Positions 12,694 through 17,573 of a stretch of 64,000 nucleotides of DNA are shown one piece after another. Source of the DNA: Escherichia coli (GTDB lineage Bacteria > Pseudomonadota > Gammaproteobacteria > Enterobacterales > Enterobacteriaceae); assembly GCF_048403405.1 (NCBI RefSeq), contig NZ_CP183129.1. The stretch is one strand, 5' to 3'. Below the pieces are notes generated by a model. It was not told the DNA's origin. It worked only from the letters and a program-made list of their open reading frames with translations, and searched no databases. Both the position numbers and the translations under genes were made by a program. Each line of letters begins with the position of its first letter. Position 1 is the first letter of the stretch.

Positions 12694-13071
12694 TCACTCC
12701 TGACCAAAATCTTTCCACACTAATGCATGAGACTTTGATTTATCACCCAAAAATTTACTTACATCTTTCCAAAGTAAAGAATTGCTATCGGTCGCAGTGA
12801 CTATTGCCTCTATAAGCCCTGTAGCTACAACTGTGGCCAATTCATCATCAATCGAGACCATACCATCTTCGACATGTTTAAATATTTTTTCTCTTTCAAT
12901 ATCACCCATTTCATAAAAATTTTTTACAATCGTTTTTCCAATCTGAGAGAACAACATAACCACCGGTGGAGTTTCTGGATGCCAGTATTCATTAGCTAAT
13001 GAGACTGTCTCAGACAAAACAGTGGAAAACGATGCCATTTTTTCTATATAATTAGCAATATATTGGTTCAT
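12694..13071 (-). CDS. Putative Rhs-tip immunity protein (125 aa, no recognisable motif)
   Basis: ATG overlaps the Rhs stop by 1 nt (TAATG); AT-rich like the Rhs tip; position immediately downstream of the toxin domain. Confidence 0.6.
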   Translation of the reverse strand: MNQYIANYIEKMASFSTVLSETVSLANEYWHPETPPVVMLFSQIGKTIVKNFYEMGDIEREKIFKHVEDGMVSIDDELATVVATGLIEAIVTATDSNSLLWKDVSKFLGDKSKSHALVWKDFGQE

Positions 13072-16000
13072 TACTTGCCTCCCAAAGCATTCTGTAAATC
13101 CTGAAGAACGTTTTCTGCTGCTGCTCGATCCCCTGGAGATGCTGTTGGATTCTTATCCAACCAATCCTGTAAAGCCCTTGTATAATCCTGTGCTTTCAAT
13201 ACATGTCCTCTACCACCAACTTTTTCACCTGTGGCCAATTCATAACGAACAGCATCTGCTGTGCTTCCACTTCCTACTTTTGCATTTGGCCGATAAAGAT
13301 CGTCTATAATATTTTTCAAATTTGAATCTGTAACGTCAGGTTTTCCCATCTTCTGTCGCAATTCATCTTTATACCGTTCATGCTGCATACGATCTCTTGC
13401 GCTATTCTCATCTTCTGGTCCCCATCCTCCCGGGCTTCCCGTACTGCCACCACCCAGGCAGTTCTTCTCTTCCTCCGTCAAATCCTTCCCGACATTTGGA
13501 TTCTCTTTTGATGAATCATCATTTCCAAACACGCTGGAAAAAGCACCATAGGGATCTCGCCAGAATTCCATTTGACTTTGTGCATTTAATAATTCGGCTT
13601 CACCCTGCATCTCCATACTTTTCTCAATCGCGTCCCCAACAGCCTCGCGATTGTTGTATATTATTATACCACCACCAATAACCACCGTACCGACTGCCGC
13701 ACCGACTAACATCCCCGGAGGGCCTCCTACCGAACCGATCTCTGTACCTACTTCAGAACCAGTTCCCATGGCAGTTAATGCTCCTGCGCCCAACGCCGCA
13801 CTTAATCCCAGCGGATCCAGCCGTTGCACCGGGTTCAGTGGATACGCATACAGGTTCCATCCCCCCTTCAGCCCAATCGGATCCTGGGTGATATACCTCC
13901 CCTGTAGCGGGTCATAGTACCGGTGACGGTTGTAGTACAGCCCCGACTCCTCATCATACTGCTGCCCCGGCAGACGGAGTGACTGTTGAAGGTGCTGCGC
14001 GCTGGTTTCGCCCAGCAGGTTTCCCCACTCGTCATACTCCCCGCGCCACGCCGTTTCCCCTTCCGGGCTGATAAGCGCCTGCGGCAGCCCACGGTGGTCA
14101 CAGTGGTAAAGATGAAGTTTCCTCTCCGGGATGTATTCCGCCTCCAGTTGCGCCGCCATCTGTTCCGCCGTCAACCCACACTGTGCAAGCCACTGCTGGC
14201 TTTCTTCACTCACGCTGCCCTGCCGCAGTTCCCGCTCCAGCCTCCCCAGCATCACCGCCAGCTCCGCCGGTAGCGTCACACCCGTGTCCTCCTGCAACAC
14301 CTCCGCCAGGCTACGGTGCCGCGCCTTCGCCTGTTCGCCATTCTCTGTTTCGATTCTCAGGAGCGGCGTGAAGCTCCCCGGCTGGTATACCGTCTGGATA
14401 CGCGTGGTGTCGGTCTGTACCGTCGTCAGCCTGTCGCCGTCCCACCCGTACCAGGTCACCTCCGGTTTACGCGACAGCGACATCCACCCCGTCAGGTCAC
14501 GCTCCCGCCGCCACACCCGTTTTCCCGTCCGGCGGCCCAGCGGGTCATAGAGGTAGCGGCTCTCCACCTGTGGCTCGCCGTGCTGTATCCGCGTGTAGAA
14601 CACCAGGCGGTGCTGGCTGTCGTAATGGTAGTGGTGCGTCCGCTCGTCGTGCATCCGTATCACCCCTTCCGGGATACGGTCCGTCTTCTCCGCCAGCCTG
14701 CCGTATTCATCGTAGCGGTAGACATAGTGCGCATCTTCCGTGATGCGGTTATCCGGCCACGCCGTGAAGGTGCTGTCCGGGTGCAGTTCCGGGTCCGGCA
14801 GCCGGTTTCCTGCCGGGTCCGTCGCATACGGGATATCAATGTCCAGGTTCGCTGCCGTGGTGTGGACGCCCGTCAGCCTTCCCGTGTCGCTGTAACGGTA
14901 CTCCCGGCTCTCCTGCGGGCCGCTGATGCGAATTAGCTGTCCGTTGTCGTTCCAGTCGTAGTCACGGTCAAGCTGCGGAAGGTTCAGGTGCCTGCTCCGG
15001 AGCTGGCCGCTGGTATTCCAGGCGGTGGCAAGCTCATATGCCTCCCCGCCGAAGCTGCGGGCCGTCTCACGGTGCAGCCGGTCCCGCGTGTACTCGACCA
15101 GTGGCGTACCACCCAGCTTCATTCCCGCAAGATAACCGCTGCCATACGTCAGCCACTCCACCGGCGGCAGACCGTCCGGCTCCTGACGGGTCGCCAGCCC
15201 CTGTTCGCTGTACGCGTGCTTCATCTCATGCTCCCACAGCATCTCCCCCGTCTCCGGGTTCTCCACCGTCTGCCGTTCGCCGGTCAGGCGGCCTTTATCG
15301 TCGTGGCCGTAGTGGACCGCCACACGGTGGCCTTCGCTGATATGGCTGATTTCTGTCAGCCAGCCGTGCTCATCATACTGCCACTGCTCCGCCGGGTCGC
15401 CGTTCACCGTCCGGTGCGTGATGCGGTCCGACGCATCGTAATGCCAGAGGGTGATAAGTCCCTCGTCTTCACTGTGGACAAGCTGCCCTGTGGCGCTGTA
15501 CCGGTAACGCTGCGTCCTGCCGTCAAAGCCGCGCTGCTCCGTCAGCCTGTCCACCGGGTCATACCGGAACGTGGACTGGCTGCCGTTCTCGTTGGTCAGC
15601 ACGGTGATGCGCCCGGCAGCGTCATACCCCATGCTGCGCGTCAGACCGCCTTCCGTCACACTCACCGGACGCCCGCGTTTATCATATTCGATGGTGCTGC
15701 GTTTACCGTCCGGTGATATCGTTGCTGTCAGGTCGCCTGCGGCGCTGTACTCATAACGGGTTTCACGCCCCTGCGCATCCTTCTGACTGACCAGTTGGCC
15801 TCGCGGGTTATAACTGCTGTAAGTGCTGATGCCTTCCTCCCGGTGAACGGCGATTTGTTGACCGTACCGGTCATACTCATACCGCGTCATGTACCCCGAG
15901 CAGTCCGTGAAGGCCCGAAGCTGACCGTACCGGTTTCGCGTTATTCTCCGCGTCACCCCGATTCCGTCTTCCACCGCGCCGGGCAGGCTACTGCGGGGGG

Positions 16001-17573
16001 AGTCATAAAACCAGCGCGTAATGTTACCGTTGCGCGAGATCTCTTCTGCCAGTCGGCCCTGACGGTCATATTTCCGGCTGCTGCGTAAACCATCCGGATA
16101 TGTCACTGAAGTCAGTTGCAACTGGCTGTTGTAACCATACCGTACCGTCCTGCCGTCCGGCAGTATCACTGAAGTCAGCTTTCCAGACGCCATATGCAGC
16201 CGGTACTCCGTCCGCCGTCCTGCCGCATCCGTCTGCGCCTTCAGCCTCCCCGCCTCATCATACTCGCTGCGGGTGATGCTCCCGTCGGCATGCTCCTTCT
16301 TCACCACACGCTTCAGGCCACCCCCGCCTTCCGTGTACAGCACCTCCCGCCGGTTCAGGCTGTCCGTGATGGTCACACGGTCCTGCCCGTACTCAAAGCG
16401 GTAGTCCAGCCCCTCCGGGTTGACCTGCTCCGTCACCCGCCCGGTATCATCATACCGGTAGCGGCTCTCCGGCCTCCCTGCATAATGGTGCGCCACCATC
16501 CGCCCGGCGTGCTCCGCATCATAAGTAAACCCGCGCACCTGCGTCCCGCTGCGGTCATACACCGCCCGCAGTTCTCCGCTGGCCGTGTACGTATAGCGCG
16601 CCAGCGGCGCAGTCGGCTGTTCATCCGGGTATGCCGGGTCGTGTGTCAGCCACACCGCCTCCAGCCGGATACCGTTATCGGCACCGTATTCTGTACCGGC
16701 GGGCAGCGTATCGGGGAAAACCTGAGAAGAGGAAACAGAACGGGGACCGGCTGGAGAAGATAAAGAAGAGGCGCGCTGTTTACGGAAGGCTTCCGCCCGC
16801 TGCGCCTGCGTGCTCAGCGCCAGGTGAAAACAGCGGCCCGCGCCGTCCGTCACCCCCGTCACCGCACCCGCCACGTCACCCTCTGCCGCCCGGTGGAAGG
16901 CCAGCGTCCGCCCGAAGCCGTCCACCACGCCCGTCAGCACCCGGTATGCGGGCGGCTCCGGCGGCAGCACCTCGTCCGCCCCCGGCACCCGCTCCGGCCA
17001 GCCGAGCACCAGCCACTGCCCGGTTGTGCTGGCAGCCATCATATAGATGTGTGGACTCAGACGGACCGCTTCCGGCAACGCCCGCCAGAGCCGCGCAAGC
17101 GGGTGGCCTTTGTGCTGCTGTTTCAGCACCCCGCACCGCGCCAGCCAGAACGACTCGCTGCGGCTGTAGCTTATCTCGCCGGGAAACAGGGGTTCAAAGT
17201 GAATGCTCCTGCCGCCGCTGTCGTTGAGTATCAGGCCTTCATCGCGTATCTGTAAGCGGATATCGAAGGGGGCTTTCCAGCCGGGACCAAACACCCCCAC
17301 CGGCGCGGGCGTCCTGGTCCGGTAGCTGCTGTAGGCGCGGAAAAGAACAAACGGCAGCGGGCCGGACAGTGCCAGGTCGGTTTCAGCAGGCAGCACCTTC
17401 GCTCCCAGCAGCGGGTTTACCGGATTGCCATATTTCGGCGTGGCTTCCCCTGTGGGACACACCGAGCAGGCCACACCGGTTGGCGCACCTATCAGCACCC
17501 CTGCTGAACCCTGCACAATATCCAGTCCCTTGCGGGTCATGTCACCCTGCCGCGCCGCCGGTTTTCCACCCAT
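13071..17573 (-). CDS. PAAR-Rhs polymorphic toxin: N-terminal PAAR-like region, YD-repeat shell, DPxGL motif, ~195 aa C-terminal toxin domain of unassigned family
   Basis: 1500 aa [15 protein letters not shown]... N-terminus, many YD/RYxYD repeats, PxxxxDPLGL at 13803-13817 region, then Gly-rich hydrophobic linker and a divergent AT-rich tip. Confidence 0.9.

Follow-up and report, generated by a model that had tools for sequence, protein, structure and literature searches.

Organization of the Rhs Locus

The DNA described here is a stretch of 64,000 nucleotides from Escherichia coli (RefSeq assembly GCF_048403405.1, contig NZ_CP183129.1), referred to as the window, and the element of interest is an rhs gene with a small open reading frame (ORF) immediately downstream, together spanning positions 12,694 to 17,573. 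Judged from its sequence and its neighbors, the rhs product is a polymorphic toxin of E. coli delivered by a type VI secretion system (T6SS), with a delivery architecture that is ordinary and already known. The toxin domain at its C-terminus is a member of a very large, cross-phylum family without a curated name and is not an orphan oddity. Gene pairing and structural modelling indicate that the 125-residue product of the downstream ORF is a real cognate immunity protein. The features of the locus are as follows.

20000..20518, minus strand: hcp, T6SS tube protein TssD (NCBIfam TIGR03344, E 1.7e-61; RefSeq annotation at an identical locus)
17649..19790, minus strand: vgrG, spike protein TssI, 713 residues (NCBIfam TIGR03361, E 5e-188)
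13071..17573, minus strand: rhs, full-length effector of 1500 residues (NCBIfam RHS_core)
17430..17573, minus strand: PAAR-like segment, Rhs residues 1-48 (literal PAAR tetrapeptide in the sequence)
17196..17429, minus strand: DUF6531, Rhs residues 49-126 (Pfam PF20148, E 3.4e-17)
13803..13832, minus strand: PxxxxDPLGL autoproteolysis motif, Rhs residues 1248-1257 (motif search; the RHS_core and Rhs_assc_core matches end here)
13659..13802, minus strand: module 1 of the tip, Gly/Ala-rich and hydrophobic, Rhs residues 1258-1305 (Kyte-Doolittle)
13419..13658, minus strand: module 2 of the tip, helical region and Gly/Ser/Pro linker, Rhs residues 1306-1385 (phmmer, hhalign)
13074..13418, minus strand: module 3 of the tip, toxin domain, Rhs residues 1386-1500, conserved core 1407-1500 (family alignments, AlphaFold2)
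12694..13071, minus strand: immunity gene, 125 residues, DUF7674 family (start overlaps the rhs stop in TAATG)
11337..12458, minus strand: ISAs1 (H-repeat) transposase bounding the Rhs element (NCBIfam NF033564, E 2.6e-125)

In the six-frame ORF list hcp, vgrG, the 1500-residue Rhs and the 125-residue ORF all lie on the minus strand, and hcp is the first gene in an operon-like hcp-vgrG-rhs-immunity unit. An initial annotation, made from the sequence alone, had proposed a full-length Rhs linked to VgrG and starting 75 bp after its gene. Both points are borne out by the NCBIfam assignments of hcp and vgrG, the 75-bp gap between the end of vgrG and the start of rhs, the rhs coordinates and the RHS_core match, and the tssA-M cluster next door. 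No EagR/DUF1795 chaperone gene lies in the 75-bp gap between vgrG and rhs. The match to the NCBIfam equivalog RHS_core (NF041261) covers Rhs residues 1-1257 and scores 2492.9 bits against a curated cutoff of 2000. Within the core are YD repeats (TIGR01643), Rhs_assc_core (TIGR03696, residues 1180-1257) and, in a Pfam search of residues 1-1200, 17 RHS_repeat matches. The GC content is 0.62-0.69 across the rhs core, then 0.43 and finally 0.34 over the tip and the 125-residue ORF, a fall of the kind that C-terminal displacement usually leaves. The score above cutoff and the drop in GC together argue that rhs is not a chance ORF.

The Rhs is genetically linked to a T6SS through hcp, vgrG and a complete core cluster, which occupies approximately 21215-42083 of the window on the plus strand, divergent from hcp-vgrG-rhs. 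This cluster contains tssB, C, E, F, G, tagH, tssJ, K, dotU, a ClpV-like ATPase, vasI, tssA and tssM, together with a VasL-domain protein and a second hcp at 40643-41125. In the RefSeq genome of E. coli strain 7/2, which has an identical locus, the counterpart has yafV/ivy/fadE on one side and a complete T6SS cluster on the other, the cluster being inserted beside tRNA-Asp and dnaQ. Directly downstream of the immunity gene of the window, the ISAs1-family transposase ORF (373 residues) is apparently intact; the same element is frameshifted in strain 7/2.

By analogy with other Rhs proteins, the shell (residues 1-1257) would enclose a 243-residue tip, which is probably freed by autoproteolysis between DPLGL and the following S through the Asp of that motif. 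The cleavage motif named in the initial annotation is found at residues 1248-1257, where the RHS core ends. The PAAR-like segment and DUF6531 would mount the Rhs on the adjacent VgrG spike, an analogy in which loading through PAAR is assumed. The literal PAAR-like N-terminus noted earlier stands only as a tetrapeptide. The Pfam PAAR_motif (PF05488) has no match at E<=10 on residues 1-1200, where only DUF6531 and RHS repeats are recognized, and this weighs against the proposed VgrG loading. Such N-termini of E. coli Rhs proteins are called PAAR-like in the literature (PMC6730261). At about 48 residues, the N-terminus could not accommodate a complete PAAR domain.

The Toxin Domain and Its Family

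The tip was thought to belong to no known toxin family, and the HMMER/Pfam, profile and Foldseek checks that were run on it matched no characterized toxin family. Pfam, queried with a 255-residue sequence for the tip, gives no toxin family on the tip, on 54 homologues, on the 26 most divergent homologues or on the C-termini of 59 carrier proteins. NCBIfam has no match on the tip or on the 125-residue immunity protein. Sequence and profile searches of the PDB with the toxin domain and the immunity protein return only a match to the linker of CdiA-CT536 plus noise, and Foldseek finds nothing in the PDB at E<1 for the model of the toxin domain.

The domain is nevertheless widespread. When 1.84 billion representatives were searched exhaustively with a profile, 2341 clusters were found at E<=1e-3, of which 1549 reach E<=1e-10, each cluster being defined at 50% identity. 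In these proteins of up to 2634 residues, the domain always lies at the extreme C-terminus. The carriers include Rhs, filamentous-haemagglutinin (Fil_haemagg)/CdiA (PT-VENN), PT-HINT, PAAR, WXG100-like (WXG100_2) and PT-TG proteins, and a Foldseek search of AFDB50 adds 112 matches of the same kind, among them CpnT-like proteins and proteins of Actinobacteria with a type VII secretion system (T7SS) signal. As is characteristic of polymorphic toxins, one domain is thus found C-terminally on different delivery scaffolds. A scan of one genome per species locates 80 loci in more than 10 phyla. The hosts comprise Gamma-, Beta- and Alphaproteobacteria, Campylobacter, Myxococcota, Oligoflexia and Actinobacteria (Streptomyces among the cluster carriers), as well as Bacillota, Chloroflexi, Cyanobacteria, Planctomycetes, Chlamydiae, Acidobacteria and Treponema.

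Within E. coli, 400 of 5426 complete genomes (7%) carry the toxin and immunity module, in all cases on the chromosome; 268 copies are at least 99% identical and 132 are 95-99% identical. Their existing annotation reads only “RHS element core protein” and “hypothetical protein”. The DNA of the tip and immunity gene is 100% identical in many complete E. coli chromosomes. No characterization of this tip or of DUF7674 was found in the literature; the Salmonella STox catalogue (PMC12994826) gives names and accessions only and could not be mapped. Recent catalogues built on in-house hidden Markov models (HMMs), such as STox, may hold this domain under another name. The tips of RhsF and RhsG of enterohaemorrhagic E. 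coli (EHEC; PMC7618764) differ from the present one.

Genomes of amoeba-associated bacteria and of Chlamydiae also carry the toxin/DUF7674 pair frequently, which is an uncommon setting for a toxin used between bacteria. These include plasmids of Ca. Caedibacter/Paracaedimonas (loci L026 and L057) and metagenome-assembled genomes of Chlamydiae (L012, L035, L036, L039, L052, L061, L066 and L075).

Toxin domains from different phyla share a mean pairwise identity of 54%, which is unusually high. The invariant or nearly invariant residues are Y1427, G1434, G1436, S1437, T1438, R1443, E1445, T1448, G1449, H1457, K1460, W1471, D1482 and D1492. AlphaFold2, supplied with the family alignment, predicts an all-helical domain with a predicted local distance difference test score (pLDDT) of 91.2 and a predicted template modelling score (pTM) of 0.81. 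In this model the G-S-G-S-T loop caps the helix bearing R1443 and E1445. After this helix comes a short hairpin rich in Gly, and H1457 and K1460 lie at the start of the helix beyond the hairpin.

A divergent member, approximately 37% identical, is present in Proteus mirabilis (L086:5845-6279) within an array of orphan rhs C-terminal (rhs-CT) modules, and a 134-residue ORF (L086:6276-6680) overlaps its stop. This protein keeps DHxxK and the C-terminal helix, while PDGGT, L and T replace G-S-G-S-T, R and E. It could be either a mechanistic variant or a decayed copy.

The Cognate Immunity Protein

The 125-residue ORF overlaps the Rhs stop by one nucleotide in TAATG, as had been noted, and is preceded by GGAGG 6 nt upstream of its start. 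It was initially described as free of known motifs, a description that must be amended. The product matches Pfam DUF7674 (PF24722) weakly (E 5.7e-4, residues 24-119), and homologues linked to it by jackhmmer carry recorded PF24722 matches, one of them strong (L003). In the first three unrelated loci inspected (L002, L003 and L004), which represent an orphan cdiA C-terminal (cdiA-CT) module (L002), a PT-HINT context and a metagenomic contig, a DUF7674 gene of 115-124 residues abuts the toxin homologue. The partner at the orphan module, which belongs to a contact-dependent inhibition (CDI) system, is 46% identical to the 125-residue ORF of the window.

This pairing holds across the family. An ORF starts between 40 nt before and 200 nt after the toxin stop in 81 of 83 loci, and 77 of these ORFs are recovered by jackhmmer seeded with the 125-residue ORF of the window. 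The immunity proteins diverge faster than the toxins (mean identity 22% vs 54%), and the two divergences are correlated (r=0.56). The immunity family is acidic, with a median isoelectric point of 4.6 (4.8 for the protein in the window), and has an invariant Glu (E88) in the motif (A/V)ATG(L/F)(L/I)E. None of 78 immunity homologues has a signal-peptide-like N-terminus, nor does the protein of the window, which is soluble and acidic and has no transmembrane segment. A cytoplasmic immunity protein in turn points to a cytoplasmic target.

The two partners were also modelled with AlphaFold2 as a toxin-(G4S)6-immunity fusion, using a paired alignment of 42 pairs. The fusion reaches a pTM of 0.84; each domain exceeds 93 pLDDT and disorder is confined to the linker, as is expected if the toxin and immunity domains dock confidently. 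The homologous downstream ORF in 77 of 83 loci and the docked fusion model together argue that the 125-residue ORF encodes a real immunity protein, consistent with the role first proposed for it. The acidic, translationally coupled DUF7674 protein would protect the producer by binding directly to the toxin domain, as the model suggests.

Anatomy of the Tip

The sequence after DPLGL is 243 residues long (residues 1258-1500) and consists of three modules. The initial annotation had put the tip at about 195 residues, a length that fits only if the first 48 or so hydrophobic residues are skipped; the 39-letter segment that it quoted from the tip is present in the Rhs sequence. Module 1 is strongly hydrophobic, with a Kyte-Doolittle mean of up to 2.11 over 19 residues. 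The linker of module 2 (NPNVGKDLT) is homologous to the one that connects the entry domain with the nuclease domain in CdiA-CT of uropathogenic E. coli (UPEC) 536 (PDB 5j43, 5j5v and 8zyc; phmmer E ~1e-5). Module 3 is the toxin domain described above.

The first two modules look like a reusable pre-toxin or entry unit when compared with other loci. The pre-toxin stretch (window 13408-13731, minus strand) is found as DNA of 93-94% identity in approximately 626 other complete E. coli genomes. In those genomes, as at L085:3853-4305, the pre-toxin module is fused to an unrelated truncated C-terminus (…EIRNTYRSIKDAPQYPRGVRNVQNG…) followed by a DUF3969 gene, and lies next to an ISAs1 copy; the related rhs-CT remnant of L085 is flanked by ISAs1 copies. 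The occurrence of the pre-toxin module with a different C-terminus elsewhere argues that it can recombine without the toxin. In a Yersinia protein (P0045), an entry domain of the 536 type is combined with the toxin domain described here. Given the reuse with different toxins and the partial homology to CdiA-CT, it may be speculated that the hydrophobic module and the CdiA-CT-type linker help the cargo to cross or engage the inner membrane.

Proposed Activity and Alternative Readings

The toxin domain has a conserved His/Glu/Arg/Lys set, a loop resembling a phosphate nest, a small size, an acidic inhibitor and extreme conservation, features that together point to an enzyme whose cytoplasmic substrate is universal. 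A metal-independent RNase would be the most economical interpretation. The all-helical domain, of approximately 110 residues, would act in the target cytoplasm, perhaps with tRNA as the preferred substrate. His1457 and Glu1445 would serve as general acid and base, and the scissile phosphate would be held by Arg1443, Lys1460 and the G-S-G-S-T loop at the N-terminus of its helix. The fold may be distantly related to that of Ntox28, the anticodon nuclease of CdiA-CT(UPEC536), which is all-alpha and cleaves the anticodon loop of tRNA with catalytic His178. The sole hhalign alignment of the toxin with Ntox28 places GGxxH1457 on GGYWDH178 and is collinear to a shared ...ALxG C-terminus, and the phmmer match to CdiA-CT536 begins in the linker and reaches the first helix of the toxin domain. 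A family member in AFDB (A0A0X8D552, 44% identical) bears the automatically assigned name “Bacterial toxin 28 domain-containing protein”. Overall, an Ntox28-like RNase is tentatively the best single mechanism.

Several results weigh against this reading. The hhalign P-values for the toxin against Ntox28 are 0.15 and 0.097, which is not significant, and the probability of 97.4% obtained when the linker is included is driven by the linker. The Pfam Ntox28 HMM (PF15605), which true Ntox28 proteins do carry, has no match among approximately 140 family members (54, 59 and 26 proteins plus the tip). A narrow Ntox28 HMM barely separates the family from shuffled sequences, with median scores of 1.5 vs -0.6 bits and maxima of 12.0 vs 10.6. 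The Foldseek search of the PDB with the toxin domain is negative as well. The Ntox28 motif set, D, K[DE], [DN]HxxE and E (Zhang et al. 2012), is not found; the family has xHxxK instead (H1457 and K1460) and has no counterpart of the catalytic Asp155 and Trp176 of CdiA-CT536. Since the homology is statistically insufficient and both HMM and motifs fail, the domain is not filed as Ntox28. The Rhs ends in ...NALGGK, whereas 536-like proteins end in G[YH]GI, and activation by CysK is not expected given the missing GYGI tail. The Proteus protein is a further difficulty: as it has no G-S-T, R or E, the proposed catalytic set is uncertain. Since it does retain DHxxK, the most secure candidates for catalysis are H1457 and K1460.

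The main rival is a cytoplasmic enzyme other than an RNase, for example one that modifies nucleotides, NAD(P) or proteins through phosphotransfer, nucleotidyl transfer or hydrolysis of an essential nucleotide. The G-S-G-S-T loop would then be a phosphate-binding nest, the R, E, H and K residues would be catalytic, and the likeness to Ntox28 would be merely that of small helical bundles. The invariant Gly-rich loop directly before a helix with invariant R and E fits this alternative, as do the absence of the defining features of Ntox28 and of a fold match to any nuclease family except the weak match to 5j43. The very high conservation across phyla likewise implies a universally conserved small-molecule or protein target. 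Such an enzyme is possible, if somewhat doubtful. A similar tentativeness, on the unlikely side, attaches to the broader proposal that the ~110-residue domain forms a new class of catalytic toxin, with a mechanism unrelated to Ntox28, a G-S-G-S-T/RxE/HxxK site, a universal cytoplasmic target and DUF7674 as its dedicated inhibitor family. Action on the DNA of the target cell, as a DNase or non-specific nuclease, is improbable. Most characterized Rhs tips of Enterobacteria are nucleases (PMC6730261), and the immunity protein is acidic and cytoplasmic as would suit one, but Pfam and Foldseek reveal no HNH, PD-(D/E)xK, Tox-REase, ParB-like or other metal-site motif or fold. A His/Glu/Arg/Lys set without clustered acidic metal ligands is better suited to metal-independent RNA chemistry.

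Two readings place the function of the locus outside the C-terminal domain or outside bacterial competition. One takes residues 1258-1305 for the actual toxin, a pore or ionophore, with the C-terminal helical domain as an accessory. The segment is strongly hydrophobic and resembles a Gly zipper, and ionophoric CdiA-CTs with such helices exist (PMC11630599). However, the same hydrophobic module is fused elsewhere to an unrelated C-terminal domain and is absent from most family members on other carriers, so its behavior is that of a delivery module. It is the C-terminal domain with which the immunity protein is consistently paired, and that protein, soluble, acidic and free of transmembrane segments, differs from the immunity proteins of pore-formers; membrane action is therefore very improbable. 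The other holds that the pair is silent or repurposed in this strain, as reported for RhsFint-RhsFI of EHEC. There the immunity protein binds small RNAs, and rhs-CT and immunity are expressed from internal promoters independently of the T6SS, which is repressed (PMC7618764). A search of the 3' end of the window's rhs for an internal promoter or terminator like those of EHEC rhsF gave nothing above chance. The hcp-vgrG-rhs-immunity unit and the T6SS cluster are all intact ORFs, every candidate catalytic residue is kept, and the module is conserved at 98-100% in 400 E. coli genomes, which makes silence or repurposing highly unlikely.

Four candidates were considered and rejected. A T4-lysozyme-like reading of E...TG...GH conflicts with immunity proteins that have no signal peptides, and no lysozyme fold is matched. 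The spacing is wrong for a HEPN nuclease (Rx4-6H), and the fold is wrong for an ADP-ribosyltransferase (ART) with an R-S-E triad. A pore-former was set aside with a soluble immunity protein and a hydrophobic module that is reused elsewhere.

Significance

The delivery architecture of this locus is textbook, and its value lies in the cargo, a toxin/immunity pair that has no name, structure or known activity. The breadth of the family, its conservation and its strict pairing with an immunity gene make it a worthwhile and easily testable target. The activity of the toxin, once determined, would annotate thousands of Rhs, CdiA, LXG/WXG and HINT toxins, and would also give DUF7674 a function. A true link to Ntox28 would place the family within an otherwise unique tRNase fold, as a branch independent of CysK; failing such a link, the domain would represent new toxic chemistry. 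Should the domain form a new class, the pair would rank among the most widespread uncharacterized polymorphic toxin/immunity pairs, delivered by type V (T5SS), VI and VII secretion systems from E. coli to Streptomyces and Chlamydiae, and a T6SS Rhs would secondarily be seen to reuse a pre-toxin or entry module of the CdiA-CT type. The pre-toxin segment, which is common to CdiA-CT(536) and other E. coli rhs tips, also offers a tractable case for the cytoplasmic entry of T6SS Rhs cargo.

Comparison with Known Systems

The closest relatives in overall design are the Rhs proteins encoded in E. coli T6SS clusters (“T6SS2-Rhs”, or PAAR-Rhs-CT; Ma et al. 2017), as summarized in PMC6730261. The present locus resembles them in its DPxGL-ended core, short PAAR-like N-terminus, AT-rich displaced tip, small immunity gene and ISAs1/H-repeat boundary. 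It differs in having no EagR/DUF1795 chaperone gene between vgrG and rhs. The tip is none of the Pfam-assignable Rhs-CT classes given there (MPTase4, REase-3, Toxin_55 and others) and would join the “unknown” clan.

With CdiA-CT(UPEC536)/Ntox28 (PDB 5J43 and 5J5V) the homology of the toxin domain is at P ~0.1. The present domain has an extra helix and the invariant G-S-G-S-T/RxE segment, and its immunity protein belongs to DUF7674 and is not CdiI-536.

Orphan cdiA-CT/cdiI and rhs-CT modules (Poole et al. 2011, PMC3150448) provide the third comparison. The same pair occurs as an orphan downstream of cdiA in the enterobacterial CDI locus L002 (toxin 67% and immunity 46% identical), and a member of the toxin family lies in the Proteus rhs-CT array. 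In L002, small SymE_toxin genes (6990-7202 and 10368-10583) lie on the opposite strand, interleaved with the orphan cdiA-CT/cdiI modules. In contrast to such orphans, the module of the window continues the reading frame of a full-length Rhs whose gene neighbors vgrG, which argues that it is the deployed copy.

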